A stretch of 64,000 bases of DNA, from contig JBBRWS010000001.1 of the NCBI GenBank assembly GCA_038249055.1, positions 78,244-142,243 of the forward strand, given 5' to 3'. This stretch comes from Minisyncoccia bacterium (GTDB taxonomy: Bacteria; Patescibacteriota; Minisyncoccia; Phycocordibacterales; UBA9973). Shown here piece after piece: positions 9,541-53,277 of the stretch (positions are counted from its first letter, which is position 1; each line of letters begins with the position of its first letter). The position numbers were made by a program, and so were the translations under genes. The notes beneath the pieces are model-generated. The model saw nothing but the letters and a program-made list of their open reading frames with translations, ran no database searches and was not told the origin of the DNA.

Positions 9541-9720
9541 TAGAAAAGTCTTTCGATTTTTTGACAAACATGACGTAGGTAATGTGCTTAGGGTCACGCA
9601 AAAAAAGAGACTCACTTTCGTGAGTCTCTTTTCTCAACGCGTGAGCCCAGTAGAAATTCGATTGGAATAAAATTTATAAATAAAAATGACCCTAAACTTT
9701 CGTTTGTAGGGTCATTCTTT
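9541..9720 (+). repeat. Family A repeat, partial copy, with two terminator-like hairpins
   Basis: TCTTTCGATTTTTTGACA...GACGTAGG...GTGCTTAGGGTCAC shared with copies at 601 and 17128. Hairpins AGAGACTCAC/GTGAGTCTCT and AATGACCCTA.../TAGGGTCATT. Confidence 0.55.
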
Positions 9721-17127: not shown

Positions 17128-17472
17128 TTACAGAGAGAATGAAAATCTTTTCGATTTACTAATCGTCTGACGCACGTGACGTAGGGAACAGAGACCGCGA
17201 GTACGCTTATCGAACCTTACAGGTTCAGTACACCTTTTCGTTTTGATTAACATCAAAAAACGAAAAGCTTTTCGATTCTCTGACGCAAGCAAAGCAGTTT
17301 GCTTGCTTAGGGTCACAACAAAAAAACCGACATAAGTCGGAATTTTTTGTGAGGGTTCTCGAGATAGAACCAGTTGGTTCATTGCCCAGTAAAGCTTGTT
17401 TTACTAATTTTACTTTAAAAGTTTTAACCTTCTCGTGAGACTATAAAAAGTGACAAAAGTGACAGTACTTAG
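17128..17472 (+). repeat. Family A repeat, copy 2 (two tandem tRNA-fragment-like units plus conserved 3' part)
   Basis: 17258-17472 is about 85% identical to 703-938. Contains TTCGATTCTCTG, a 25-nt perfect hairpin, then TAGGGTCAC, which reads as the tRNA-Glu T-loop/acceptor 3' strand split by an inserted hairpin. Also contains the terminator-like CCGACATAAGTCGG followed by TTTTTT. Confidence 0.7.
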
Positions 17473-41103: not shown

Positions 41104-41171
41104 AATAATTAAATTCGGCCCGATTCACTTATGTGTTTCGGGCTAAATTTTTATGTTATACTCTAAATATA

Positions 41172-41297
41172 TGATCCCGTTAGAGATGTGCATGTTATAT
41201 TATACGGGTAAGTTTGAATTATTTATAAAATTTATATTATTAACTAAAATTAATAAGATACGTCCCATCTAATGAGGGACTATCTCTAATGGGATGA
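41172..41297 (+). repeat. Family B element, copy 1 (inverted repeats ATCCCGTTAGAGAT / ATCTCTAATGGGA; flanking TGA duplication; 3' end coincides with the rsmI ATG)
   Basis: arm sequences co-vary relative to the other copies (AGAGAT/ATCTCT vs AGAAGC/GCTTCT). TGA at 41172-41174 and 41295-41297. Confidence 0.7.
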
Positions 41298-41989
41298 CAC
41301 AAGAAGAAACAGGAATTTTATATATAGTAGCAACTCCAATCGGTAATTTGGAAGATATCACTCTTCGGGCACTTCGCACTCTTAAAGAAGTGGATACTAT
41401 TCTTTGTGAAGATACTCGCACTACAAGAGTACTACTTAATAAATACGATATTCATACAAAGACAATGAGTTACAATGCTCATGCTACAGATAATAAGGAA
41501 TCAATAATTATTAAGATGTTGAAAGAAGGTAAAAATTTGGCCTTAGTGTCAGATGCAGGAACTCCGTGTATTTCTGATCCAGGTGTAATGCTTGTTGCCA
41601 ATGTAAAAAATGAACTAGGCGATGATGCCAAAGTAGTACCTATACCTGGACCAAGTGCTTTAGTCTCTGCATTATCTGCAAGTGGGGTATCATCAGCAGA
41701 ATTTGTTTTTCTTGGTTTTCTTCCTCATAAAAAAGGTAGAGAGACTTTGTTTAAAGAAATTGCGAATAGTAAAAGAGTAATAGTTTTTTATGAATCTACT
41801 CATCGTATTTTAAAAACGCTGTTATCTTTATCAAAACATGCACCAGAATTTAAAGTTGTTATAGGGAGGGAAATTACAAAGCAATTTGAGGAATTTGTGC
41901 AAGGTACACCTGCGGAAGTTTTAGAATATTTTACTGTGCATAATGATAAACAAAGAGGGGAATTTGTTGTGATTGTAGAGCCGAAATAA
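41294..41989 (+). CDS. rsmI: 16S rRNA (cytidine1402-2'-O)-methyltransferase RsmI
   Basis: GILYIVATPIGNLEDITLRALRTLKEVDTILCEDTR. Confidence 0.85.
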   Translation: MTQEETGILYIVATPIGNLEDITLRALRTLKEVDTILCEDTRTTRVLLNKYDIHTKTMSYNAHATDNKESIIIKMLKEGKNLALVSDAGTPCISDPGVMLVANVKNELGDDAKVVPIPGPSALVSALSASGVSSAEFVFLGFLPHKKGRETLFKEIANSKRVIVFYESTHRILKTLLSLSKHAPEFKVVIGREITKQFEEFVQGTPAEVLEYFTVHNDKQRGEFVVIVEPK

Positions 41990-42011
41990 ATAATATATAA
42001 TGTAACAGTTA

Positions 42012-42139
42012 TGAGTCCCGTTAGAAGCCGCGGTCACGGAGAGCGGGATATAAGATTATTGAATTATTAAAAAATTAATATTAAGCATGTTGTGTTTGTT
42101 ACCTATAATGGTGATCGCGACCTGCTTCTAACGGGATGA
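42012..42139 (+). repeat. Family B element, copy 2
   Basis: TGAG|TCCCGTTAGAAGCCGCGGTCACGG ... GATCGCGACCTGCTTCTAACGGGA|TGAG; ends at the ATG of the 42136 gene. Confidence 0.75.
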
Positions 42140-42351
42140 GAAAAGAAAAAACATTATTTATTATAGGCTTATGGATTGTATTATTATCATTTTCAGGATT
42201 TTCACCTTTTGTGCGCAAGATCTTATTTTCGATTACAGGTTTAGCCATTATGTATCTAGCTTATTTATATTATTTAGAAGTTAAATTTCGTCTATCAAAA
42301 GATATAAATAATAGTAAAACATTTGTAGACAATATAGGAAGTAGTGAATAA
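42136..42351 (+). CDS. small membrane protein
   Basis: 71 aa, two TM helices. Confidence 0.4.
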   Translation: MRKEKTLFIIGLWIVLLSFSGFSPFVRKILFSITGLAIMYLAYLYYLEVKFRLSKDINNSKTFVDNIGSSE

Positions 42352-42353
42352 CT

Positions 42354-43580
42354 ATGTCATTTAATAAAAATACAAAAAGATTTATTTTTATTGGCCTCGC
42401 AATTTTTGTTTGCGGGGTTATTGTTTATTATTTTTTATCAATGATTTATGGTAATGATATAAAATACGATATAAATCAAAATTTAATTAATAACAATGTT
42501 GGTGTATTAAAAAGTGATGTAGAAGATTTAAAAGAGAAAAATTTAATAGAAGAAAATCTTAAAGAGATAGTTCCGGTTACTCACATAGAAACCCCGAAAC
42601 AAGTAAAATCTCTCTATATGTCTGGCTGGGTTGCGGGGTCTAAAGATTTTGTTACGTCTCTAATAAAAATAGTAGATGAAACAGAACTCAATGCTGTTGT
42701 AATAGACATTAAAGATTCTACTGGTCGTCTTAGTTTTCAAATAGATGAGCCTAGTATACAAAAAATTGGAAGTGCCGAAAATCGAATTAAAGATGTAAAA
42801 GCACTTACTGCATTACTTCATTCTAAAAATATTTATATTATAGGAAGAATTTCAACATTTCAAGATCCATATCTAACAAAATTAAAACCAGAATGGGCAA
42901 TAAAGAAAAGTAGTAATGGTGAAGTTTGGAAAGACAGAAAAGGGCTATCTTTTCTTGATCCGACAAATAAGGAGGTACATAAATATCTTGTGTCTATTGC
43001 TTTAAGTTCTTATGAATTAGGGTTTGATGAAATGAATTTTGATTATATAAGATATCCTTCCGATGGTAATATGAAAGATATAAATTATAATTTAAAAAAT
43101 GGTGATACGAGATCTGATAATATGGAAAAGTTTTTTAAGTATCTCAGAGATGAAATTAAAAAAGATATAGATATTCCCATATCAGCTGATCTTTTTGGTT
43201 TAACAACAGAAGCAGATGGTGATATGGGAATAGGTCAATTATGGGAAAAAACTATTCCGTACTTTGATTTCGTTTGTCCCATGGTATATCCATCACATTA
43301 TCCTAGTGGATATTCTGGATATAAAAATCCATCACTTTATCCTTATGAAGTTGTAAATAAAGCTCTAGCAAGTGCTGTAGTTAAAACAAAAGCTATTAAC
43401 GAAGATATTTCTAAAATACGTCCCTGGTTACAGGATTTTGATTTAGGTGCTACTTATACCAAGGAGATGATGAGGGCTCAAATGAAGGCAACTTACGACA
43501 ATGGATTAAATTCTTGGATGTTATGGGACCCAAGCAATAAATATACTCCTTCTGCATTAAAACTTGAAACTATTAATTAA
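42354..43580 (+). CDS. membrane-anchored putative glycoside-hydrolase-like (GHL10/DUF187-type) protein
   Basis: N-terminal TM helix; NFDYIRYPS motif. Confidence 0.4.
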   Translation: MSFNKNTKRFIFIGLAIFVCGVIVYYFLSMIYGNDIKYDINQNLINNNVGVLKSDVEDLKEKNLIEENLKEIVPVTHIETPKQVKSLYMSGWVAGSKDFVTSLIKIVDETELNAVVIDIKDSTGRLSFQIDEPSIQKIGSAENRIKDVKALTALLHSKNIYIIGRISTFQDPYLTKLKPEWAIKKSSNGEVWKDRKGLSFLDPTNKEVHKYLVSIALSSYELGFDEMNFDYIRYPSDGNMKDINYNLKNGDTRSDNMEKFFKYLRDEIKKDIDIPISADLFGLTTEADGDMGIGQLWEKTIPYFDFVCPMVYPSHYPSGYSGYKNPSLYPYEVVNKALASAVVKTKAINEDISKIRPWLQDFDLGATYTKEMMRAQMKATYDNGLNSWMLWDPSNKYTPSALKLETIN

Positions 43581-43600
43581 TTTTGTAATAATAAGAAAAG

Positions 43601-44824
43601 ATGAATAAAAATATTAATTTAAAAAAGTTAGGTTATGTAATAATTTTTCTCCTTGTTATTTTGGGTTTTTTGGGTTTTGGTGTTTATATTGGATATTCTC
43701 AAAGACCTGAAATAGAAAAAATTTCTTCTATAGTGAATAAAGAAACACAAGTAGAGACAGGAGCCGATTTTAGTGCTTTTTGGAAGGTATGGAATATATT
43801 AAATGAAAAATCAATATATGCTGAAAAAACAAAAGATCAAGACCGTGTTTGGGGAGCTATATCTGGTCTAGCATCATCAATGGGAGATCCTTATACAGTA
43901 TTTTTCCCACCCAAAGAGAATAAATCCTTTAATGAAGAAATATTGGGTTCTTTTGAGGGGATAGGGGCTGAAATAGGGATAAAAGATAAAATACTTACAA
44001 TTATTGCCCCTCTAAAAGATACTCCAGCGTTTAGATCTGGGTTAAAAGCTGGAGATAAAGTCATAAAAATTAATAACACTACTACACTTGGGATGACAAT
44101 AGATGAAGCTATTGATTTGATTCATGGGCCAGGTGGAACTAATGTTACCATTGTTGTTCTTCGTCCAGGAGAAAAAGAAACAAGAGAATTTATTATAAAA
44201 AGAGAAACAATTCAGATTCCTACGTTAGATACAGAATTGAGAGATGATGGAATATTTGTTATTAAACTCTATAGTTTTTCGGAAAACTCAGACAATTTAT
44301 TTAAAGATGCGATTATTAAATTCATAGATGCAAAATCTAGTAAATTAGTATTAGATTTAAGAGGTAATCCAGGAGGATACTTGGGTTCCGCTGTAAATAT
44401 TGCGTCATGGTTTATAGATGAAGGTAAGACCATATTAATTGAAGATTCTGCGGATGGAAGTAAACCCAAAATTTATAGAAGTCATGGGCCAAGACTGTTC
44501 AATGAAAATCTTTCATTTGTTGTATTAGTAGATGGTGGTTCAGCTTCTGCTTCTGAAATATTAGCTGGTGCACTCAAGGAACATGGGATTGCAACTTTGG
44601 TTGGAGAAAAAACTTTTGGTAAGGGTTCTGTTCAAGAACTTATAAAAATAACAGAAGATACTTCTCTTAAGGTTACAGTGGCCAATTGGCTTACACCAAA
44701 CGGAGTTTCTATATCATTATCTGGACTTGAGCCTGATGTAAAAATCCCATATACTTCAAAAGATGCAGAATCAAAAAAAGATCCACAAATGGATAAAGCA
44801 ATTGAAATATTAAATGCTAAATAG
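43601..44824 (+). CDS. ctpA: carboxyl-terminal processing protease (S41 family, PDZ domain)
   Basis: GIGAEIG, LRGNPGGYL, DGGSASASEI motifs. Confidence 0.8.
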   Translation: MNKNINLKKLGYVIIFLLVILGFLGFGVYIGYSQRPEIEKISSIVNKETQVETGADFSAFWKVWNILNEKSIYAEKTKDQDRVWGAISGLASSMGDPYTVFFPPKENKSFNEEILGSFEGIGAEIGIKDKILTIIAPLKDTPAFRSGLKAGDKVIKINNTTTLGMTIDEAIDLIHGPGGTNVTIVVLRPGEKETREFIIKRETIQIPTLDTELRDDGIFVIKLYSFSENSDNLFKDAIIKFIDAKSSKLVLDLRGNPGGYLGSAVNIASWFIDEGKTILIEDSADGSKPKIYRSHGPRLFNENLSFVVLVDGGSASASEILAGALKEHGIATLVGEKTFGKGSVQELIKITEDTSLKVTVANWLTPNGVSISLSGLEPDVKIPYTSKDAESKKDPQMDKAIEILNAK

Positions 44825-44839
44825 AAGTTTAATGGAGAA

Positions 44840-44966
44840 TGAATCCTGTTAGAATCTACGGTCACGGTTTTGATGGGATAAATAAATATTACTAGTTTAA
44901 TATAAAATAAGTAGAGCGTTGTTATTTATAAAATAATGACCGCGACCTGCTTCTAAACGGGATGAA
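44840..44966 (+). repeat. Family B element, copy 3
   Basis: TGAA|TCCTGTTAGAATCTACGGTCACGG ... GACCGCGACCTGCTTCTAAACGGGA|TGAA; ends at the rplI ATG. Confidence 0.75.
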
Positions 44967-45402
44967 AGTTATTTTACTTACAGATATACCAAAGATTGGT
45001 AATAAATATGATGTTAAAGATTTTAAAGAAGGTTATGCTCAAAATGTACTTTTAGCTAAAGGATTGGCTTGCCTTGCTACTAAATCAGAACTCGCAAAGA
45101 TTGAAGACAGAAAAAAACAATTAAATAAGAAAAAAGAAGAAGAAATAGAATCTTTCAAAAATTTAATCTCATCTGTAGGTGGTAAAATTATTAAAATAAA
45201 AGCAAAAGCAAATGAGAAAGGTCATTTATTTAAGGCAGTTGGACCTCATGATGTAGTTTTGGCGATTAAAGAAATAACGGGAATTGAAATTAGTGAAAAC
45301 TCCATAAAAATGGACCATATTAAAGTTCTTGGACAGCATTCTGTTTCAATAAAAAAAGGCGATATGAAAGGGGAGTGTGGAATAGTTATTGAGGCTATTT
45401 AA
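44962..45402 (+). CDS. rplI: 50S ribosomal protein L9
   Basis: MKVILLTDIPKIGNKYDVKDFKEGYAQNVLLAKGLA. Confidence 0.8.
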   Translation: MKVILLTDIPKIGNKYDVKDFKEGYAQNVLLAKGLACLATKSELAKIEDRKKQLNKKKEEEIESFKNLISSVGGKIIKIKAKANEKGHLFKAVGPHDVVLAIKEITGIEISENSIKMDHIKVLGQHSVSIKKGDMKGECGIVIEAI

Positions 45403-45405
45403 AAT

Positions 45406-45440
45406 AAAAACCCCTAAGACCAGGGTCTGAGGGGTTTTTA
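45406..45440. terminator. bidirectional terminator between rplI and rpmA
   Basis: AACCCCTAAGACC...GGTCTGAGGGGTT flanked by A/T runs. Confidence 0.6.
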
Positions 45441-45713
45441 TTATATAACGTGAACGATTTTCTTAACTGAAGATGTTCTATTGAAATTTACTTTTCTTTT
45501 AGTTCCAAATTTAACTTTTCCTTCTTTAAGAGCAAATAGAGTATGGTCTTTACCAAGTCCTACATTAGTTCCAGGTAGAATTCTAGTTCCACGTTGACGT
45601 ATGATAATTGATCCTGCTTTAGCTTGTTCTCCAGCATAAAGTTTCGTACCGAGGTACTTTGGATTTGAGTCTTTTAAGTTTTTAGCCGAACCTCCGGCCT
45701 TCCTATGTGCCAT
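45441..45713 (-). CDS. rpmA: 50S ribosomal protein L27
   Basis: [24 protein letters not shown]... Confidence 0.85.
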
Positions 45714-45764
45714 ATATTATTATTGCTAATCAGTAGCCAATTTATTAATTATAATCAAGTAAGT

Positions 45765-46163
45765 ATGAGTATACCTAATATTATCTATAAAATCAAGAGG
45801 AAGAGTGGTATTGACATAAACTCTATTATGTTTCTTCTTATAATAGTGGGGGTGGGGATAGGTTCCTTTGGTTTAGGTAGAATGTCTGTTAATACTACCA
45901 TTAGTGAAGGAGTTAATAATGAGTCAAATATTTCAGAAAAAGATAAAAATATTGAAAATATAAGTGATGATGGTATTATAATTTCAGCAGTTCCATTAAT
46001 ACAAACTAGAGAAAAGAGGTATGTAGCTTCAAAAAATGGTAAAATATATTATAGTATTGGATGTAGTGGTATAAGTCGAATTAAATTAGAGAATCAAATT
46101 TGGTTTAGTACAAAAGAAGATGCAGAAAAGTCTGGATATACCTTATCTACAACATGTCATTAA
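45765..46163 (+). CDS. small protein with Ada-like Zn-binding domain
   Basis: YVASKNGKIYYSIGCSGISRIKLENQIWFSTKEDAEKSGYTLSTTC. Start moved to MSIPN at 45765 to avoid overlap with rpmA. Confidence 0.5.
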   Translation: MSIPNIIYKIKRKSGIDINSIMFLLIIVGVGIGSFGLGRMSVNTTISEGVNNESNISEKDKNIENISDDGIIISAVPLIQTREKRYVASKNGKIYYSIGCSGISRIKLENQIWFSTKEDAEKSGYTLSTTCH

Positions 46164-46177
46164 TAAACATACATATA

Positions 46178-46307
46178 TGAATCCCGTTAGAAGCCGCGGT
46201 CGCAGTGTATTTATTATAATGTTGTAAATATTATTAATTATTTTTTGAAGTAGAGTCAGTGAGTTAATTTTTAAAATTGACCGCTACCTGCTTCTAAACG
46301 GGATGAA
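46178..46307 (+). repeat. Family B element, copy 4
   Basis: TGAA|TCCCGTTAGAAGCCGCGGTCGCAG ... GACCGCTACCTGCTTCTAAACGGGA|TGAA; ends at the ATG of the 46303 gene. Confidence 0.75.
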
Positions 46308-47199
46308 ATTATTTTATAAAATTTGTATAGTCGCATCATTAGCTTTATCAATCTTTGTTGCCAGAGATGATATTCTTTCTGTCGTAAATAATTTCTCCTC
46401 TTATATAAAAAAGGATATTGAAGAACCAATAATTACATTAGAAGAAAAAAAAGAAATTCAATTAACGGAAAAGGTTGATATGCCGGGAGCTCTTCGTGTA
46501 GTAGTGGATGATATAATTAATGGCAATATTAAATTATCTGGAAGTAATATAATAAAATTCACAAATAAATATAGGAATGAAAATGGTGCCTTAGCTCCAC
46601 TAAGTGAAAATCAAAAATTAAATATCTCTGCAGAAAATAAATTACAAGATATGTTTAATGGTCAGTATTTTGAGCATATATCTCCAAGTGGTGTTGCAGT
46701 CGGAGACTTAGGTGATCAAGTTGGCTATGAATATATCCTAATTGGCGAGAATTTGGCCTTAGGTAATTTTAAAGATGATTTAGCTTTAGTTGATGCATGG
46801 ATGGCAAGTCCTGGTCATAGAGCCAATATCTTGAATGAACATTATACTGAAATTGGAGTTGCTGTTGGTAAAGGTGTTTTTGAAGGCAAAAGTGTTTGGA
46901 TCTCTGTTCAGCATTTTGGTACACCAAGAAGTGTTTGTCCTCCTGTAGACCAAGTTCTTTATGGAATAATTGACATAAACCAAAATCAAATAAAAATAAT
47001 GGAAGATAGTCTTGCTCTAAGTAAAGAGAAAATAGACAAAATGGCCATATTTGAAGGGAATACCTATTTTGAACAAGTTAAACAATATAATAGTTTTATA
47101 GAAATTTATAATAAATTAATTGCGGAAACAAAAGAAAAAATAATTGATTATAATAATCAGGTGAGGGATTTTAATCTTTGCTTATTGAACTATAAATAA
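46303..47199 (+). CDS. CAP/SCP/PR-1-like (YkwD-type) secreted protein
   Basis: signal peptide; MASPGHRANILNEHYTEIGVAVG. Confidence 0.6.
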   Translation: MKLFYKICIVASLALSIFVARDDILSVVNNFSSYIKKDIEEPIITLEEKKEIQLTEKVDMPGALRVVVDDIINGNIKLSGSNIIKFTNKYRNENGALAPLSENQKLNISAENKLQDMFNGQYFEHISPSGVAVGDLGDQVGYEYILIGENLALGNFKDDLALVDAWMASPGHRANILNEHYTEIGVAVGKGVFEGKSVWISVQHFGTPRSVCPPVDQVLYGIIDINQNQIKIMEDSLALSKEKIDKMAIFEGNTYFEQVKQYNSFIEIYNKLIAETKEKIIDYNNQVRDFNLCLLNYK

Positions 47200-47362
47200 T
47201 TTTGGTTATTTGTAGTTGGGGGAGTGTTTTTTATCCTATTTAAGTGTTGATAAAAAATATGATAGAGTGTCGCACAATATATCTTTTACGACACTTAATC
47301 TTAAAATATAGTTATATATTACTTATATTCTTTAAAATATAATTTTTACTCACCCTTTATCT

Positions 47363-47956
47363 TTATTCTAAATTGTTTTCACTTATTATTAATTCTAGTT
47401 CCACTTCATCCGTAAATAAATATGATTTAATCCCCACTTCACTTGCAGCTAATAAATTTTTTTCTTGATCATCAAAATAAATACAATCTTCTGGATTAAG
47501 ATTATTTTCAGAAAGTATCAATTGCCATGCTCTTGTGTCTGGCTTAATAAACCCCGTTTTCCACGAAAAATACACCTTATCGGCGGATTCATGTATCCAT
47601 TGATAATTATTGTAATATTCAGATCTTTCTTTGAAGTTATTGGACAGTATGAATACTTTAATACCACTAGAACGCAATTTTGAGGCGTATTGTATCATTT
47701 GTTCCGATGGTATTTCTGACTTAAACCAATAATCCCAAAATTCTGATTCAGAAAATTTCAAATTCAATTCTTCAAAAAATGGTTTCCAGTATTCAAATGT
47801 AGGTCTTGCTTTGGGTTTTCGGACTGCTTCCATAATTTCGTTTAATTTTATTTTAAAAATTTCAGCATCAATATGAAAGTCCTTCTCAAACCTATCACTA
47901 AGTTTAGGGCTTTGTAAAAATATTCCATTTAAATCAAATATTACTGCTTTTATCAT
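47363..47956 (-). CDS. HAD-family hydrolase
   Basis: MIKAVIFDLNGIF motif I. Confidence 0.6.
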   Translation of the reverse strand: MIKAVIFDLNGIFLQSPKLSDRFEKDFHIDAEIFKIKLNEIMEAVRKPKARPTFEYWKPFFEELNLKFSESEFWDYWFKSEIPSEQMIQYASKLRSSGIKVFILSNNFKERSEYYNNYQWIHESADKVYFSWKTGFIKPDTRAWQLILSENNLNPEDCIYFDDQEKNLLAASEVGIKSYLFTDEVELELIISENNLE

Positions 47957-47964
47957 ATTTTTTA

Positions 47965-48198
47965 TTATCTTAGATTATCAATACTTCCAGCATCTTTTAC
48001 TTTTTTAAATCCAAAATTTTCCATTAGTTGTTTAGCCATCATCGATCTGTTTCCAGATTCACAATATAAAAACATTTCTTTATTTTTGTCAATATCTGGG
48101 TAAATACCTTCCATCATACTCATAATGTCGTGATGAATTGCTCCGTCTATATGTTCTCGTTCAAACTCCCCTTTTGTTCTCACATCAATTAAAATCAT
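47965..48198 (-). CDS. rhodanese-domain protein
   Basis: 77 aa; rhodanese active-site-like CESGNRS. Confidence 0.6.
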   Translation of the reverse strand: MILIDVRTKGEFEREHIDGAIHHDIMSMMEGIYPDIDKNKEMFLYCESGNRSMMAKQLMENFGFKKVKDAGSIDNLR

Positions 48199-48262
48199 TT
48201 TTGATTATTTTAGCGAAACAAATTATTTTTATTCGAATTTGTTTCATCTGTTTTATTAGTAA

Positions 48263-49417
48263 TTACTTTTTTCTTTTTTCTAAATATTTTTTATTTTTTA
48301 ATTTTTCTGGTAATAAATTATTATTTGTATATTTTTCATAATTTTTACCATAACCAAGTTCTTTGTTAAATTTAGTTGTAGGGTTACGAATATCAAGTGG
48401 AATTGATAAATTACCATATTTTTTAACATCCTCTAATGCCAGTAAATAAGCATTATATGCGCTCCTATCCTTTGGGGCCTGAGATAGATAAACTACTCCA
48501 TGTGCGAGGTTTATAGCACATTCTGGCATACCTATAGTCTCAATAGCACGAAAGACATCATTAGCAACAACTAATGCTGTAGGAAGAGCCAATCCAATGT
48601 CTTCTGAAGCAAATATAACCATACGTCTTGCAATAAATTTTGGATCTTCTCCAGATTCAAGCATTCTTGCTAAATAGTATAGAGCAGCGTCTGGTTGGCT
48701 TGCTCGCATACTTTTTATAAATGCACTTATTGTATTGTAATGTTCATCACCTTTTTTATCATATCGAAGAAATTTTGATTGAAGAGTATTTTTAAAATTT
48801 TCAATATTAATTTCTTTATATAAAGAAATAGTATTTTCAATCATCGCGATTGCTTGTCTTGCGTCACCTTGGGCCATAGAGATAAGCCAATCAGACGCAT
48901 CTTTTTTTATTTTATACCCAGTCCTTTTTATTATTTTTCGCATGTCTTCATTTGAAAATTCTTCCAAAATAAAAACTCTACATCTTGAAAGTAAAGCAGG
49001 AATAACCTCAAAGCTTGGATTTTCTGTTGTTGCACCAATTAATACAAGTCTACCACTTTCAACATAAGGAAGTAAAAAATCTTGTTGAGCTTTATTGAAA
49101 CGATGTATTTCGTCAAGAAAAAGAATTTTAGGACCTAAAAGAGTACCACTTCCACTTGGAGAAGAATTAAGTATTTGACGAATGTCTTCTTTACCGGCAG
49201 AAACTGCAGAAAGCTCGTGGTAGTCAGCATTTAGTGATTTTGCATAAATCTTAGCAAGAGTTGTTTTTCCTACTCCAGGTGGCCCCCAAAGAATAAATGA
49301 AAATATATGTTTTTCTGAAATAGCAATAGAAATAGGCTTATTAGGACCAACCAGATGTTCTTGGCCAATAAATTCAGTTAATTTTTGAGGTCTAATTTTT
49401 GAAGCTAATGGTTCCAT
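48263..49417 (-). CDS. rarA: replication-associated recombination protein A (AAA+ ATPase RarA/MgsA)
   Basis: WGPPGVGKTTLAKIYA, Walker B LFLDEIHRF. Confidence 0.85.
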   Translation of the reverse strand: MEPLASKIRPQKLTEFIGQEHLVGPNKPISIAISEKHIFSFILWGPPGVGKTTLAKIYAKSLNADYHELSAVSAGKEDIRQILNSSPSGSGTLLGPKILFLDEIHRFNKAQQDFLLPYVESGRLVLIGATTENPSFEVIPALLSRCRVFILEEFSNEDMRKIIKRTGYKIKKDASDWLISMAQGDARQAIAMIENTISLYKEINIENFKNTLQSKFLRYDKKGDEHYNTISAFIKSMRASQPDAALYYLARMLESGEDPKFIARRMVIFASEDIGLALPTALVVANDVFRAIETIGMPECAINLAHGVVYLSQAPKDRSAYNAYLLALEDVKKYGNLSIPLDIRNPTTKFNKELGYGKNYEKYTNNNLLPEKLKNKKYLEKRKK

Positions 49418-49507
49418 GTGTCTGTATTATAGCTTTATAATGTTATAAATTCCACTTAAATAATAAAACCCCCCAATTTTAAAATCGAGGGGGTTTTATT
49501 ATTTTAA

Positions 49508-49762
49508 TTAAATATTTTGAAGTTCTTGATCTATCGGTAACATGTCTGTATCACTAGTATCAGTTACATCAATATTATTCAAACTCGTATTTATAGATGT
49601 TGTGGAATCTGATACAACTGCAGTATTTAATTCAGTTTCTGTCTGAGTTAATACTTTTTCAGGTTCTGTTTTTTTACTACTATTTTTTATTAAAATTGTA
49701 GCCATAACCCCAACGATAATAATAACTATTATCGTCACTATTAAATTATTTTTTTTATCCAT
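49508..49762 (-). CDS. small membrane-anchored protein
   Basis: 84 aa, one TM helix. Confidence 0.35.
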   Translation of the reverse strand: MDKKNNLIVTIIVIIIVGVMATILIKNSSKKTEPEKVLTQTETELNTAVVSDSTTSINTSLNNIDVTDTSDTDMLPIDQELQNI

Positions 49763-49773
49763 ATAATAAATTT

Positions 49774-50610
49774 TTAGTTGTTATTTGTAGTATTATCATT
49801 TTCGACCACATTAGAAATTTCATCTTCATCAACTCTTGGAACTTTTGCAAGTGTTGTAGCGGTATCCCTTACCGCAGTGTGTGCTAATTTTATTTTTTCA
49901 TTTAGAGCTTTTATATCAGAGCCAAATGTGTCTCTTAGTTTTTTCATTTCAGTCCTAAGTGAGGACTCATCTGTTATAGTCTTTGATATTGAATAAGTTT
50001 TACTTATTTGTTTTTGTATTTCTGATCTAGCTAATTCAATAGCCTTTTCCGCAGATACTAATTTTGAGGATATTTCGGATACATTTAAAATTTTATTTTC
50101 AGCTTTAGAGATTCGTGAATTTATACTAAAAAGTACATTTTCTATTTGATTTATTTTTTCAGTAAGTTGATCTGTTCTTTTTATATTTAATTCCTCTATG
50201 TTGCTTACAATTTTTTCGGCAGAAATTTTCTTTTTCTCATCTTTTATTTTTGTAAGACCTTCTCTTAGTTTATTTTTTAGTTCTTCAAATTTTAATTTTG
50301 ATTCTTCTTTTTTTAGTTCTAATTCTTTTTTAAATTCCTCACGTTTTAACTTTGTTTGTTGCATCATTTGCTCTATTTTGATTTTATACATTTCCCTTTT
50401 TGATTCCAATTCATCTCTCATATTTTTTGCTTCATTTTTTGCTGCTTCCATTGCTTGTTCACGTTTTATTTTATTTTCTTCTCTGTTTAAATTATTATTC
50501 AACTGAGTATCTTCAGGTGTGTTGTTATCCTCGGCGGAAGCTATAAAACCAAAAATCAAAGATAATATTATGACAATTGACGATATACTATATTTTATAT
50601 TTTTTCTCAT
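49774..50610 (-). CDS. secreted coiled-coil protein
   Basis: signal peptide; long K/E-rich heptad-like region. Confidence 0.5.
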   Translation of the reverse strand: MRKNIKYSISSIVIILSLIFGFIASAEDNNTPEDTQLNNNLNREENKIKREQAMEAAKNEAKNMRDELESKREMYKIKIEQMMQQTKLKREEFKKELELKKEESKLKFEELKNKLREGLTKIKDEKKKISAEKIVSNIEELNIKRTDQLTEKINQIENVLFSINSRISKAENKILNVSEISSKLVSAEKAIELARSEIQKQISKTYSISKTITDESSLRTEMKKLRDTFGSDIKALNEKIKLAHTAVRDTATTLAKVPRVDEDEISNVVENDNTTNNN

Positions 50611-50802
50611 TGTTTTTTGAAGTAAATTACATATTATATATATAATTTACAAGATTAAATTTATAAATTAAAATTAAATTTTTTATTTCATTATTAACTG
50701 CGACCGTATTCATAATGAACTCACTATATAATTGTAAACTATTTATTCAGTAAATCAAATAAAGACCCCTTATAAAAAATATATTTTATAAGGGGTCTTT
50801 AT

Positions 50803-51774
50803 TTATTTTATAACACTGTTTATAACTTTCCCTGTTTCTAGCGCGGCAATAATATTTTTTGCAGCAATTTCTGCCATCATGTCGCGAGCTGATTGTCTAG
50901 CTGAAGCAATATGCGGGGTAAGAATTACATTTGATAATTTAATAAGTCCTGGAGTAAGTTTTGGTTCGAATTCATAAACATCTAACGCTGCTCCTTTTAT
51001 AGTCCCCTTTTTCAATGCAGATACTAATGCTTTTTCATCAACAACAGGACCCCTTGAAGTATTAATTAAGAAGGAAGTTTTTTTCATCATTTTTAATGAT
51101 TCTTTATTTATAAGATGATGAGTTGTTGGAAGTAATGGAACGTGAAGGGATATAATATCAGCCTCCTTAAGAATTTCGAAGGTTTCTTTTTTAATTGTTC
51201 CTGGAACTTTTTCAATCTCAAGATTTGGAACTATGTCACTGTAAAGAATATTAACTCCAAATCCATAATGAAGCATTTTTGCTACCTCTGTTCCTATTTG
51301 TCCTGCACCAATTAATCCCAGTGTTTTACCTTTTAAGTCAGTACCTATCAATAAATATGGATCCCATCCTTTATATTTTCCTTGGCGCATAAATCTATCT
51401 CCTTCATTTAGTCTTGTTGTTAACGCTAAAATAAGAGCAACCGTGTGTTCAGCTACAGCAATAACAGACGTTCCTGGAGTATTTGATGCACAAATATTTC
51501 TTTTTTTAGCTTCCTCAATATCAATATTGTTGTATCCGACAGAAAAATTGGCGCAAACCTTAGCGGTTGGACAGGAATCAAAAACTTCTTTATCTATAGG
51601 GTCTGTTAAAAATGAAATAATACCATCATAAGATTTTTTCTTTAATGCTTTTACAAGTTCTTTTTTTGTTGGAGGGAGTTTTGATGTACCAACGTCAAAA
51701 CTTATTCCTTTTTCTCTCAACAATTTAAGACCAGCTTCAGGAATTTTTCTTGTAATGTATATTTTTTTATCCAT
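50803..51774 (-). CDS. D-isomer-specific 2-hydroxyacid dehydrogenase (glycerate/hydroxypyruvate-reductase type)
   Basis: GLIGAGQIGTEVAKML NAD-binding motif; catalytic domain pattern. Confidence 0.8.
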   Translation of the reverse strand: MDKKIYITRKIPEAGLKLLREKGISFDVGTSKLPPTKKELVKALKKKSYDGIISFLTDPIDKEVFDSCPTAKVCANFSVGYNNIDIEEAKKRNICASNTPGTSVIAVAEHTVALILALTTRLNEGDRFMRQGKYKGWDPYLLIGTDLKGKTLGLIGAGQIGTEVAKMLHYGFGVNILYSDIVPNLEIEKVPGTIKKETFEILKEADIISLHVPLLPTTHHLINKESLKMMKKTSFLINTSRGPVVDEKALVSALKKGTIKGAALDVYEFEPKLTPGLIKLSNVILTPHIASARQSARDMMAEIAAKNIIAALETGKVINSVIK

Positions 51775-51789
51775 ATAAATATTTGTTAA

Positions 51790-52590
51790 TTAATAACCAA
51801 TTTTAATTGAATCACGATTTTTTTCTGCAACCAAGGAAATTCTTTCCATCATAGCCACTGCTTCTACTGGATATTTACCTTTAGCAGATTCTTCTGAAAG
51901 CATAACTCCGTCAGCTCCATCAAGTATTGCATAAGCAACGTCTGAAACCTCAGCTCTAGTTGGGGTTGGGCTATCAACCATTGATAGAAGCATTTGAGTT
52001 GCCACGATTACCATTTTGCCAGCTTTTTTACATTCTTGAATTATATGATGTTGAACGAATGGTATTTCTTCGAGAGGAAATTCATTACCAAGGTCTCCGC
52101 GGGCTACCATAATTGCGTCCGTTTCTTTTATAATTTCTGCAAGGTTTTCAAAAGCCATTTTTCTTTCTATTTTTGCTATCACTTTTTGATTACCTCCCTT
52201 TTCTTTAATAAGTTGTTTAAGTTTGATAACATCAGACGCTTGACCTACAAAGGATAATGCAATATAGTCTACACCTTGTTGTATTCCGAAAGTAAGGTCA
52301 GAAATATCTTTTTCTGTTATTACCTCTTCACCTTCTTCTCCACCAAAACGATGTTCAGAACCTTCTTGCACTCTTGGTCCAGATAAATCTTGAATAATAG
52401 GAATATATAAATTATGCTGTTCTTTTGATACTTCACGAATATTTTTTATTATTTCTGTATGCCATTCATAAGTACCCCATGAGAAATTTAAGCGAGCGAT
52501 ATCCATATGATGCTTTATTAATTCAGAAATAATTTCTCTACTGTTACTAGCCGGTCCTATTGTTGCTACTATTTTTGTTATAGATTCCAT
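51790..52590 (-). CDS. pyk: pyruvate kinase-like protein consisting only of the A (TIM-barrel) domain; B and C domains absent
   Basis: [72 protein letters not shown]. The B domain is replaced by about 15 residues. The ORF ends right after the A domain. Confidence 0.7.
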
Positions 52591-52723
52591 TTTGCGGTGA
52601 AGAATGATATTATTTGTTCGCCATTCTTTTATTTATTAAATAATTTATAATTGTTTTTGTATTATATACAAAAACAAACGATTTTTCAAGGCTATAATAT
52701 GGAGTGAAAAGAAATAACTTATA

Positions 52724-52750
52724 TAAAAACACCCAATATTGGGTGTTTTT
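52724..52750 (-). terminator. rho-independent terminator
   Basis: AAAACACCCA-ATATT-GGGTGTTTT followed by T-rich sequence on the minus strand. Confidence 0.6.
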
Positions 52751-52757
52751 ATATAAG

Positions 52758-52826
52758 TTATTTCTTTGGTGGAGTAGCTTTTTTGGGTTTCTTAACTTCC
52801 TTGCGAGCACCTGTGCCTTTTGCCAT
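52758..52826 (-). CDS. tiny basic ORF (22 aa, MAKGTGARKEVKKPKKATPPKK), not in the ORF track
   Basis: ATG..TAA directly followed by the terminator hairpin; very basic composition. Confidence 0.25.
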   Translation of the reverse strand: MAKGTGARKEVKKPKKATPPKK

Positions 52827-52999
52827 ATATTTAAAATTTTTTTATTATTAATAATAGCTACATTGTAACATTATTAAACTATTTTAAAAAATTTATAAAT
52901 CTATTATATAGATTACTATAGAACAACGTCATTCGGACGTAATGCAATTAAAGATTACTTTATTTGCACCCGCTCCTCACTTGTTGTTATAATAGAAAA

Positions 53000-53113
53000 A
53001 TGGGTCCCTTTAGGGGCCACGGTCGCAGTATGTGACGGGAATTATAAATTTAATTTTAACAGATTGCGAGATTAGTAAATAATATTAATCGCGATTTGCT
53101 TCTAATAGAATGG
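53000..53113 (+). repeat. Family B element, copy 5 (degenerate)
   Basis: GTCCCTTTAGGGGCCACGGTCGCAG ... AATCGCGATTTGCTTCTAATAGAATGGA; ends at the ATG of the small zinc-ribbon ORF. Confidence 0.6.
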
Positions 53114-53277
53114 ATGAAGAAGATGATGTTCAAGAAAAAGGTGAAGTAAAAGAACCAGTTTGCCCTCGTTGTGGTTTACGCTCGTATGACGATATTTGTA
53201 AAAATTGCGGAACCCCAATTGTTGATAAAAGTGATGATGAAGAGGAAGATTATAACTGGAGAGAAAAACACAGATAA
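53110..53277 (+). CDS. small zinc-ribbon protein (55 aa: CPRCG...CKNCG), not in the ORF track
   Basis: MDEEDDVQEKGEVKEPVCPRCGLRSYDDICKNCGTPIVDK...; starts at the element's 3' end and is followed by a terminator. Confidence 0.5.
   Translation: MDEEDDVQEKGEVKEPVCPRCGLRSYDDICKNCGTPIVDKSDDEEEDYNWREKHR

Follow-up and report, generated by a model that had tools for sequence, protein, structure and literature searches.

Why should five similar repeats in one stretch of a patescibacterial chromosome each stop exactly on the start codon of a gene? The genomes of Patescibacteria are tiny and densely packed, and are regarded as poor in mobile elements. We analysed a 64,000-nucleotide stretch of Minisyncoccia bacterium contig JBBRWS010000001.1 (hereafter the window), its relatives and public sequence collections. 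All five prove to be copies of a short mobile DNA element, non-coding and widespread in Patescibacteria, that sits almost only at start codons. The copies in the window are as follows.

41171..41174, + strand: left flank of copy 1, ATGA, the retained ancestral start codon plus left duplicate, from comparison of the flanks
41175..41294, + strand: body of copy 1, subfamily B2, TCCCGTTAGAGAT ... small 3' hairpin ... ATCTCTAATGGGA
42011..42015, + strand: left flank of copy 2, ATGAG, the retained ancestral ATG plus left duplicate
42016..42136, + strand: body of copy 2, subfamily B1; gene at 42136-42351
44839..44843, + strand: left flank of copy 3, ATGAA, the retained ancestral ATG plus left duplicate
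44844..44962, + strand: body of copy 3, B1, with three 5'-arm changes; at rplI
46177..46181, + strand: left flank of copy 4, ATGAA, the retained ancestral ATG plus left duplicate
46182..46303, + strand: body of copy 4, B1; at a CAP-domain gene, ORF 46303-47199
53000..53110, + strand: copy 5 (body 53005-53110, left flank ATGGG), degenerate B1; HMM E = 2.4e-9
50611..50713, - strand: putative sixth copy, decayed, in front of the ATG of ORF 49774-50610

The first-pass annotation had described five repeats in uniform orientation, and both their positions and that orientation were borne out, with each body ending at the A of the ATG of the downstream ORF in the ORF list. Bodies are approximately 105-122 bp long, counted from T to A. 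The last A of copy 1 is thus the A of the rsmI ATG (41294; ORF 41294-41989, whose syntenic counterpart carries TP_methylase). Ribosomal_L9 and CAP domains were found on the syntenic counterparts of the copy 3 and copy 4 genes, respectively, and the target of copy 5 is a 55-codon zinc-ribbon ORF (53110-53277). Copy 1 belongs to another subfamily, sharing only the outer 11-13 nt or so with copies 2-4, and its B2 relatives were found at other gene starts. In copy 2 the outer stem spans 13 bp and the inner one 7 bp, and the 3' arm carries an ACCT bulge. The long terminal stem claimed for all five copies is present in copies 1-4, which fold at -35.8, -46.6, -33.3 and -35.3 kcal/mol (z = -4.2, -5.5, -3.2 and -3.8 against shuffles), and is absent from the degenerate copy 5. 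An HMM search of the window returned no more intact copies beyond these five. The segment at 50611-50713 is a probable sixth, decayed copy, judged from its HMM match (weak taken alone), its sequence (ATGAAT-ACGGTCGCAGTT..., with the outer 5' repeat lost) and syntenic remnants in the relatives L120-L122, which are absent from L125.

Are these repeats inserted DNA? Syntenic relatives, 78-84% identical in the neighbouring S41 peptidase, gave the answer. Empty sites occur in five of them (L121, L122, L124, L125 and L126), and filled ones are present in L120 and L123 as well as in the window. The empty sites read ...ATGAGAAAAG..., ...ATGAAATTATT... and ...ATGAAAGT..., against ATGAG-element-ATGAG, ATGAA-element-ATGAA and ATGAA-element-ATGAA in the window, so that the gene starts in these relatives hold ATGAG or ATGAA once, not twice. 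The copy 2 site has a single ATGAG in L121, L122 and L124; orthologues of copy 2 with similar interiors lie in L120 and L123. At rplI, the copy 3 site is empty with a single ATGAA in L124-L126, holds a filled orthologue in L123 and retains decayed remnants in L120-L122. The copy 1 site is empty in L120-L122, as is that of copy 4 by its sequence, and gene spacing of 3-6 nt indicates that the copy 4 site is also empty in L123-L126. Copy 4 is present in the lineage of the window only, and the insertions private to that lineage are copies 1 and 4, both at start codons. The flanking TGA(R) repeats are therefore real target-site duplications, as had been proposed, and the comparison of filled with empty sites proves that the element inserted with a 4-bp target duplication, TGNN.

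The product of insertion is N-TGNN-(element...A)-TGNN in nearly every surviving copy, the cut falling between bases 1 and 2 of the start codon. The gene's ATG is formed from the terminal A of the element and the duplicated TG, confirming the suspicion that the right-hand duplicate builds the start codon. The left flanks of copies 1-5 each hold a complete start codon (ATGA, ATGAG, ATGAA, ATGAA and ATGGG), indicating that the ancestral ATG is retained upstream and a second one rebuilt downstream. The terminal A is part of the element, since the base before the left duplicate is G in four copies away from gene starts. The duplicates of such copies are TAAA, TTTA, CATA, CATG and TCAA, and the target duplication overall is 4 bp, roughly TNNA. 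Among genome contigs, 90 of 131 copies have a flanking repeat of 4-6 bp, and in these repeats the two bases after the ATG covary (AA 42, GA 20, AG 7, CA 3, TA 3, GG 3). In metagenomes, the TGNN duplicate is found in 73/108 start-site copies, and A precedes the left duplicate in all 80 copies with a flanking repeat of at least 3 bp.

The element is general. MITE-like copies bounded by the inverted repeats TCCCGTTAGA...TCTAACGGGA were found at no fewer than 119 genome loci and at least 120 metagenome loci in public scans, the listed loci lying in host DNA of 30-61% GC. Two large samples were parsed: 131 copies from genome contigs and an independent 125 from metagenomes, the latter with palindromic termini as the sole criterion; both relied on patterns needing intact termini, which could enrich for copies with arms under selection. 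At least 250 copies were parsed. They are 78-130 bp long, contain ORFs of 26 codons at most and carry no transposase gene. The superfamily spans a whole class-level clade with near-invariant arms.

Copies adjoin a gene start in 115/131 cases on genome contigs, where the ATG follows immediately 3' of ...CGGG, and in 108/125 cases in metagenomes. In both samples approximately 97% of start-site copies are in sense orientation relative to the gene, and the bulge lies on the sense arm in 70 metagenome copies and on the antisense arm in two. The host genes in the genome sample are diverse, functionally unrelated housekeeping genes. The window has around 1375 non-coding TNNA sites and 41 start-codon TGNA sites, so that chance alone would place only some 3% of insertions at starts. 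The start-codon association is thus general and beyond chance. Copies away from starts and lacking duplications, which the first-pass annotation had named as counting against its reading, were also looked for; 17/125 metagenome copies lie away from starts, several with clean duplications, and the outcome favours the start-codon finding. Our search of the accessible literature found no description of this element.

The inverted repeat consists of 13 outer and 7 inner base pairs, with 95.4% of cells paired over 124 copies. Both sides have changed at 9/19 pairs, pair 11 being A-U (81 sequences) or G-C (41). Covariation is thus real across the family, whereas the compensatory change previously attributed to copy 1 is a difference between subfamilies and not an event within that copy. 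Mismatches in the stem are divided about equally between wobble pairs (37) and A-C (29), and these counts carry no strand-specific sign of selection at the RNA level. Between the window, L120 and L123, copy 2 differs at 1-2/46 arm positions and at around 20% of the interior (by eye). Between random pairs of copies, arm identity is 94% and interior identity 60%, the latter equal to the shuffled baseline (58%).

A bias in reading frames hints at how genes tolerate the insertion. In copy 2 an ATG in the loop opens a 14-codon ORF that is terminated by the TAA of the arm. Loop ORFs of 19-26 codons ending at the arm's UAA are found in 52/104 B1 copies, against 7 expected and a shuffle maximum of 16; the other half of B1 copies, copy 4 included, have none. 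When any interior ATG is counted, 64/111 copies have an ORF in the UAA frame (34 expected). Interior ATGs in the gene's own frame are depleted (3 against 11.4 expected), and the favoured frame stops at the UAA 4 nt before the gene's ATG. At two exceptional copies, those of L059 and L038, the gene no longer has an ATG of its own and a loop ATG lies in its frame; only these yield N-terminal extensions. Only the arm-encoded C-terminus (L)TATC(F/L) of the loop peptide is conserved, the remainder resembling A/T-rich filler, which rejects a conserved peptide; it is likely, from these sequence patterns, that the act of translation is the point of the ORF. The frame bias points to a ribosome relay that would keep the gene expressed. 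The upstream ATG is spread uniformly over the three frames relative to the arm UAA and the gene ATG (27/30/29), so a precise relay from that ATG is not selected and a fixed-frame version of it is ruled out. Translation in frame across the element was likewise rejected, since the three frames are about even (28/30/28) and most upstream ORFs end inside the element.

Insertion leaves the old start codon beside the gene's own upstream signals and provides the gene with a new ATG from the element and the duplicated TG. For what follows we propose this sequence of events. Given that the element shares the orientation of the gene and occupies its start codon, it would be transcribed within the mRNA, where it could fold into a 20-bp hairpin whose 3' arm has a YCU bulge. 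Translation would begin either at the upstream AUG that was retained or at one within the A/U-rich loop; the ribosomes would melt the stem and terminate at the 3'-arm UAA, which lies 4 nt ahead of the gene's AUG, or else at an overlapping UGA. They would then restart at the gene's AUG, so that expression persists. The 3' arm was also considered as an outward promoter of a leaderless transcript beginning at the second ATG, and this was discounted, as no -10-like hexamer lies at the right spacing (by eye). A sigma-70 consensus scan gave 31 sites against 28 expected, close to background for this A/T-rich DNA.

We consider it quite probable that the copies are a non-autonomous DNA transposon of the MITE kind, approximately 80-130 bp long, that inserts at start codons with a 4-bp duplication and keeps the gene expressed by a ribosome relay. 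The start-codon bias itself may have either of two causes. We lean slightly, at about an even chance, towards a loose R|TNNA target followed by strong selective retention, because only the start-codon register leaves a start codon on both sides and because copies there are lost only by precise excision, their arms staying under selection. Active homing to start sites, which we place somewhat short of even, would instead have the machinery read a feature of the initiation region rather than a DNA word and insert in a fixed orientation, making the bias mechanistic. Homing would account for the roughly 200-fold enrichment over other non-coding TNNA sites, for a sense bias of some 97% across many subfamilies whose termini are perfect palindromes, and for both lineage-private insertions being at start codons. 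TAnnnT hexamers also peak 6-7 nt upstream of the target ATG, with one within 5-9 nt at 41/90 sites; at that spacing they suggest that many targets are leaderless-type starts, where transcription begins at the start codon, and the target could be the open complex of a leaderless-gene promoter, with +1 the A of the ATG. However, a -10 box at that spacing is missing from roughly half of the targets, and some sites seem internal to operons, such as that of copy 4, 6 nt past the upstream stop codon. The 17/125 copies away from gene starts also count against homing, as do the lack of any known DNA-level feature common to all start codons for a transposase to read and the fact that no enzyme was identified. 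The fuller proposal, a transposon superfamily that homes to translation start sites in fixed orientation and carries a portable relay (hairpin, loop ORF and UAA-N4-AUG), is possible but on the doubtful side.

Two further readings concern what the element is. A host-encoded structured RNA leader (a regulatory hairpin, RNase III site or riboswitch-like element) that is not mobile, with the flanking repeats as a motif, would explain why arms change much less than interiors, both in orthologous copies and in random pairs, and why the bulge is conserved on the sense strand. Yet close relatives are filled or empty at the same start with an exact 4-5 bp duplication whose variable bases match the gene's second codon, and these empty sites largely refute an RNA leader as the sole explanation. 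Further against it, the host genes are unrelated in function, copies decay while the gene is kept (copy 5, the sixth copy and the rplI copy in L120-L122), one MAG has a nested element at two loci, tandem copies also exist, and no Rfam covariance model matched the elements at gathering score or E <= 1. We regard this reading as very improbable, while a secondary, exapted role at the RNA level may exist. Hairpins of the REP/REPIN type, moved or maintained on single-stranded DNA by a single-copy RAYT-like (HUH/Y1) enzyme, fare scarcely better and are improbable. They would fit the class-level persistence, the near-invariant arms, the folding of the whole element as one hairpin and the absence of a multi-copy autonomous element, but Y1/HUH transposition gives no target duplication, and here more than 160 copies have a duplicate that covaries with the site. 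Moreover, the only genes seen between inverted copies were housekeeping genes, the neighbours of reverse-oriented copies being glyS, rbfA and similar.

The non-autonomous transposon also has to be placed among known elements and enzymes. Its MITE-like nature, as first suggested, is upheld by the terminal inverted repeats, the duplication at filled but not empty sites and the small, multi-copy form without a transposase gene. We infer the transposition chemistry from the inverted repeats and the duplication, no transposase having been found, and the moving enzyme would presumably be of the DDE type, supplied in trans. Neither a transposase nor a full-length partner with matching termini was found in 1.83 Mb of DNA flanking the loci, orphan or distant repeat pairs revealed no autonomous element in that flanking DNA, and a 5'-arm pattern scan of viral contigs gave no match. 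Elements of the IS1031 group duplicate 3 bp, TNA. The present elements resemble MITEs of the IS5/IS1031 type in their short terminal inverted repeats and short, roughly palindromic T...A duplication, but a 4-bp duplication is the rule here (73/108) and no IS with these termini was found. The earlier assignment to IS5/IS1031 is accordingly not supported.

Several other mechanisms were rejected or found no support. IS200/IS605-type insertion 3' of a pentanucleotide conflicts with the covariation of the right-hand repeat with the left. Integron attC sites have the core-site order 5' RYYYAAC ... GTTRRRY 3' in a folded hairpin with extrahelical bases; here the order is reversed on both strands (GTTAGAR 5', YTCTAAC 3') and there is no cassette array. 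The elements are too small for group I or other self-splicing introns or archaeal-type bulge-helix-bulge introns, and the motifs are absent (by eye). Against an intron or ATG-to-ATG translational bypassing, the repeat covers two bases past the codon, like a target duplication, and empty sites mean insertion at the DNA level. Adenine-specific (DGR-like) mutagenesis of the interior is contradicted by invariant A positions in the arms.

The closest precedent is the mycobacterial MIRUs. These are direct (tandem) repeats, 46-101 bp long, that lack terminal inverted repeats and any long hairpin. MIRUs are known only from mycobacterial operons, whereas ours are single-copy hairpins with inverted repeats in another phylum, and no similarity in sequence is expected. 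The likeness, drawn from the summary of Supply et al. 1997 in PMC12548453, is one of behaviour only, namely start-codon position and a coupled ORF. The small ORF of MIRUs overlaps the flanking stop and start codons (-4 overlap), whereas here the UAA lies 4 nt upstream. The target duplication of Correia elements (CREE) of Neisseria is TA, and their distance from genes varies. They are small MITEs with inverted repeats like the present elements, but are not known to be tied to a start codon or to one orientation and can create promoters. PMC2649163 describes them as MITEs of approximately 100-150 bp with inverted repeats of around 26 bp, co-transcribed with neighbouring genes; RNase III can bind or cleave the hairpin in the transcript, which changes how the adjacent gene is expressed. 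Rickettsia palindromic elements (RPE) are likewise small, palindromic and mobile, and are tolerated inside gene boundaries in a reduced genome (PMC10969869). RPEs are in frame and translated with the protein, whereas here ATG-to-ATG distances are even over the frames and interiors hold stops.

Perhaps several per cent of genes thus have their start codon occupied by one superfamily (in the window, 5-6 of about 60 large ORFs), which shows a way for selfish DNA to persist within operons while leaving them intact. Upstream ORFs and long 5' hairpins before ssb, murG, mreB, rplI and rpmJ are relevant to gene callers and expression models, and insertion or loss of elements provides markers for strain-level phylogeny. 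If the bias is mechanistic, a DNA-integrating enzyme able to find start codons would be of interest for mobile-element biology and genome engineering. Were homing true, start codons would form a 'safe haven' target class like tRNA genes or attTn7, the portable relay would make insertion harmless, and the same strategy would have a second, independent instance in MIRUs.

Two points concern the ends of the element. A link between the 3' arm and the D-loop of tRNA-Glu, raised in the first-pass annotation, comes down to an 8-nt match that is not distinguishable from chance. On the other side, a matching left duplicate is absent in about a quarter of start-site copies, which counts against the transposon reading. 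Recurrent left flanks among start-site copies end in TAA, TAG or CTTG.

All five repeats that the first-pass annotation had placed in the window were present, each on the plus strand and ending at the A of an ORF's ATG. An HMM built from the family and run over the whole window found no further intact copies in the 64 kb, and matched a sixth, decayed copy on the minus strand.

Copies of the element in the window (body from first T to last A; in copies 1-5 the last A is the A of the ORF's ATG)
Copy 1: 41175-41294, plus strand; ORF start 41294, rsmI (TP_methylase) by synteny with annotated relatives
Copy 2: 42016-42136, plus strand; ORF start 42136, 71 codons, gene order as in annotated relatives
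Copy 3: 44844-44962, plus strand; ORF start 44962, rplI (Ribosomal_L9) by synteny with annotated relatives
Copy 4: 46182-46303, plus strand; ORF start 46303, CAP-domain gene by synteny with annotated relatives
Copy 5: 53005-53110, plus strand; ORF start 53110, 55 codons with two CxxC pairs
Sixth copy: 50611-50713, minus strand; decayed, outer 5' repeat lost, precedes ORF 49774-50610

Copies 1, 2, 3 and 4 had folding free energies of -35.8, -46.6, -33.3 and -35.3 kcal/mol; relative to dinucleotide-shuffled sequences, the corresponding z-scores were -4.2, -5.5, -3.2 and -3.8. The long terminal stem originally proposed for all five copies is thus supported by folding in copies 1-4, whilst copy 5 is degenerate and lacks it. 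A complete ATG, missed in the first-pass annotation, also stands on the left flank of every one of the five. The left/right flanks of copies 1-5 are ATGA/ATGA, ATGAG/ATGAG, ATGAA/ATGAA, ATGAA/ATGAA and ATGGG/ATGGA.

The family extends well beyond the window. Scan 1, with the 22-nt 5' arm (the 5' half of the terminal stem) as query against one genome per species, returned at least 119 loci. Among the matches listed, 80 loci represented 63 assemblies, with hosts mostly from Nomura-, Kaiser-, Zambryski-, Taylor-, Lloyd-, Wildermuth- and Komeilibacteria or Paceibacterota; locus GC ranged from 30 to 61%. These loci and the window gave a genome sample of 131 parsed copies, 115 of which had an ATG immediately 3' of ...CTAACGGG. 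A 4-6 bp direct repeat starting with ATG flanked 90 of the 131, the next two bases agreeing on both sides (AA 42, GA 20, AG 7, CA 3, TA 3, GG 3, AT 1, TG 1). The downstream ORFs are long and mutually unrelated and, judged from their N-termini, include ssb, rplI, rpmJ, murG, mreB, nusB and ruvX.

Scan 2 was independent of scan 1: it searched metagenome contigs for the palindromic termini only (TCCCGTTAGA-N(85-115)-TCTAACGGGA), a pattern blind to flanks, interior and orientation, and returned at least 120 loci. A gene start abutted exactly one side of 108 of 125 copies. A 4-bp duplicate was present in 73 of these 108 (TGAA 50, TGGA 9, TGAG 7, TGCG 4), and every one of the 80 copies whose flanking repeat reached 3 bp or more had A immediately before its left repeat. 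In an HMM census of all loci, 173 of 195 classifiable copies lay at a gene start. Roughly a quarter of start-site copies lacked a matching left duplicate; their recurrent left flanks ended in TAA or TAG, sometimes the upstream gene's true stop, or in CTTG/CTG. We also noted a minimal form of about 48 nt, barely more than two arms, which adjoins an apparent tRNA gene end (L064:2549-2595; L-numbers denote loci retrieved from other genomes or metagenomes).

Start-codon copies alone leave the ownership of the second ATG's A ambiguous. Non-start copies from scan 2 are flanked by G/CATA...A/CATA, G/CATG...A/CATG, G/TTTA...A/TTTA and G/TAAA...A/TAAA. Because these have G before the left repeat and A before the right, the element runs T...A with perfectly palindromic tips, and on this parse the target duplication is 4 bp, roughly TNNA. 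The TGA(R) duplication read in the first-pass annotation was therefore correct. In three copies (L104, L105, L117) the left-hand triplet is TTG or GTG but the right-hand one is ATG, which fits an A donated by the element; L060, with GTGGA on both sides, fits less simply.

Subfamilies are many and have only the outer 10-13 bp in common. Inner stems vary (CGCGGTC, CGCGATC, CGCGGAC, CTCGGTC and others) and the A/T-rich interiors are unrelated. Window copies 2-5 belong to the CGCGGTC type (B1) and copy 1 to one (B2) that has a small hairpin immediately interior to the 3' arm. Across 124 aligned copies the best stem register paired 13 bp and then 7 bp, with four nucleotides (ACCU) bulged out of the 3' strand between them; an alternative register scored worse. 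In this register 95.4% of cells were paired, falling to 33-43% when the 3' partner was shifted by 1-3 columns. Two-sided changes occurred in 9 of 19 stem pairs; at pair 11, 81 sequences have A-U and 41 have G-C. G-T-type and A-C-type mismatches were about equal (37 vs 29), so the stem tells neither which strand is selected nor whether selection acts on RNA or DNA. Random B1 pairs were 94% identical in the arms, a conservation partly imposed by the search pattern, and 60% in the interiors, against a shuffled interior baseline of 58%. With copies oriented by their gene, the YCT bulge lay in the 3' arm of 70 and the 5' arm of 2, giving about 97% sense orientation despite the palindromic tips. Reverse-oriented copies (L082 at rbfA, L105 at glyS, and L208) are otherwise normal. 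In the B1 3' arm, e.g. window 42113-42136, the sense strand ACCUGCUUCUAA(C)GG resembles the bacterial 16S rRNA 3' tail, which in many bacteria reads ACCUCCUUUCUAAGG. A likeness of the 5' arm to an extended Shine-Dalgarno sequence may follow from this resemblance, and chance may account for it.

Insertion sites were compared in seven syntenic relatives (L120-L126) with the common order rsmI / small ORF / DUF4015 / S41 peptidase / rplI / rpmA / ORF / CAP and 78-84% identity in the S41 peptidase. Filled and empty states were both found at each site.

States of the insertion sites in the window and its relatives
rsmI site (copy 1): filled in the window only; empty in L120-L122
Small ORF site (copy 2): filled in the window, L120 and L123, with clearly homologous interiors; empty in L121, L122 and L124 (...TATAAT...ATGAGAAAAG..., ATGAG once); a different spacer of about 100 nt and no element in L126; this codon occupied by another subfamily in L125
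rplI site (copy 3): filled in the window and L123; decayed remnants in L120-L122; empty in L124-L126 (ATGAAAGT once)
CAP gene site (copy 4): filled in the window only; ATGAA once in L120-L122; merely 3-6 nt between the genes in L123-L126

At each compared site, adding the element and a second ATGNN to the empty sequence yields the filled one, confirming the target duplication proposed earlier. Since this difference is the signature of transposition, the repeats are mobile DNA. The sixth copy has syntenic remnants in L120-L122 and is absent from L125. At L020:~540-760 and L062:~130-360, a B1 element sits nested in the 5' arm of an element from a second subfamily. One MAG has this same composite at two distinct gene starts. 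The nested pair was thus transposed together, and its outer termini were the part mobilised. The 1.83 Mb of loci yielded neither a transposase nor a full-length element bearing these termini, and hence no sign of the full-length IS with the same TIR envisaged in the first-pass annotation. Viral contigs gave zero matches to the 5'-arm pattern. At L123:535-2253, immediately upstream of the rsmI region, there is a large serine recombinase gene (Resolvase and Recombinase domains) accompanied by small ORFs; this is probably an unrelated integrated element.

In kind the element is a MITE. Filled and empty sites in relatives, together with decaying copies, rule out an ordinary host leader RNA. Insertion of REP/REPIN sequences leaves no duplication, so the target duplication excludes these too. 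An in-frame Rickettsia-type element and an attC site were likewise ruled out, and Rfam gave zero family matches at gathering score or E <= 1. The suggested link to the nearby tRNA-Glu did not hold, the 8-nt identity with its D arm (TCTAACGG) being within chance range. Mycobacterial MIRUs, which belong to another phylum, are arranged as direct tandem repeats and lack a hairpin, whereas the present element is a hairpin. They are the nearest behavioural precedent, being described as mobile, as inserting at start codons and as having a gene-coupled ORF (2025 review, PMC12548453). A co-transcribed hairpin and effects on neighbouring genes are among the Correia features described in PMC2649163, but Correia elements do not have the target site in common with the present element. 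Start codons go unmentioned in a 2024 review of prokaryotic MITEs (PMC10969869), and full-text literature searches found nothing relevant on such elements in Patescibacteria or on start-codon insertion. The start-codon family is a solid, phylum-wide finding and apparently undescribed. It raises the question of how a transposon comes to sit at start codons.

On a crude gene map of the window, non-coding TNNA sites number about 1375 and start codons of the TGNA form 41. Were tolerated sites used at random, some 3% of copies would be expected at start codons; 86-89% were observed at gene starts. One account, to which we give an even chance, combines a preference for R/TNNA with survival of the copies at start codons. 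Given that preference, A/TGNA is the sole register near a start that leaves start codons on both sides. Start-codon copies would then be removable only through precise excision, while insertions at other positions would degrade or be removed and thus escape pattern searches, which require intact termini. Retention also agrees with copies persisting between lineages that are about 80% identical in their S41 peptidases, and with the arms of orthologous copies changing much less than the interiors: in copy 2 the arms differ at 1-2 of 46 positions and the interior, by eye, at about 20%.

That initiation sites are actively targeted, the asymmetric bulge fixing the orientation, is a possibility that we lean slightly against. 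It would explain the very large fold-enrichment, the uniform orientation and the position of both insertions private to the window's lineage, which sit at start codons. However, half of the targets are not of leaderless type, and we know of no DNA feature that all start codons have in common.

Upstream of target ATGs, TAnnnT hexamers peaked at a spacing of 6-7 nt, with 41 of 90 sites having one at 5-9 nt, and the box was often TGnTATAAT. A TATAAT-type box at this spacing is the arrangement of leaderless genes. (TGn)TATAAT-like boxes 6-8 nt upstream of the ATG were seen in many targets, e.g. window 41150-41170, 41993-42010 and 52985-52999. G-rich Shine-Dalgarno-like 4-mers were present, but solely 0-3 nt from the ATG; the element's own ...ACGGG-ATG is similar to them. 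About half of the targets had neither signal where expected. These patterns suggest that initiation signals may be unusual in these Patescibacteria.

The upstream ATG, the ancestral start retained on the left, opens a short ORF that usually stops within the loop; the window peptides are MSPVRSRGHGERDIRLLNY, MNPVRIYGHGFDGINKYY, MNPVRSRGRSVFIIML and MGPFRGHGRSM. Its frame is uniformly distributed relative to the gene's ATG (28/30/28) and to the arm's UAA (27/30/29), indicating that there is no fixed-frame design from this ATG. Interior ATGs were more ordered. At B1 positions 25-70, 67 of 98 ATGs were in the frame ending at the UAA of ...UUCUAACGGG-AUG, and an open ORF of 19-26 codons reached that UAA in 52 of 104 B1 copies (interior shuffles: mean 7.1, maximum 16). 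Counting any element ATG, 64 of 111 copies had an ORF in the UAA frame against 34 expected (maximum 48), whilst ATGs in the gene's frame were depleted (3 vs 11.4 expected). The loop-ORF peptides have nothing in common beyond their arm-encoded C-terminal end, (L)TATC(F/L), and no consistent Shine-Dalgarno motif was found upstream of these ORFs. In the window, the loop ORF has 14 codons in copy 2 and, by eye, 6 in copy 3 and 5 in copy 1, with none in copy 4.

We take the interior-ATG pattern to mean that being translated is itself what is selected, in a putative ribosome relay. A ribosome would open the 3' arm and stop 4 nt before the gene's ATG; in a second frame, the stop would be the UGA of AUGA whenever codon 2 starts with A. 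RNA unfolding and termination-reinitiation have been proposed as models of translational coupling (PMC12548453), and both would apply to the element. At L059:3014-3121 (carA/carB junction, carB) and L038 (minus strand, 7112-7230) the gene's ATG after the element is lost (ACT and AGG), and a loop ATG in frame with the gene gives an element-derived N-terminal extension. This suggests that a loop ATG may act as a start. At L059 the upstream carA ORF extends 35 nt into the element.

Gene strand switches at window ~47200-48300, from plus before to minus after, and cumulative GC skew has its maximum here, suggesting a replication terminus or origin. Copy 5 and the sixth copy are oriented with their own genes rather than with the strand bias around them. 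At 52708-52767, about 240 bp upstream of copy 5, there is a perfect palindrome of 60 bp (30 + 30 nt, zero spacer). The window also carries a separate repeat family at 744-925, 9556-9604 and 17275-17455, with two copies of about 113 nt that are 88% identical and a third, partial one that has the common core ...GACGAAGGTCACGTGCTTAGGGTCAC...
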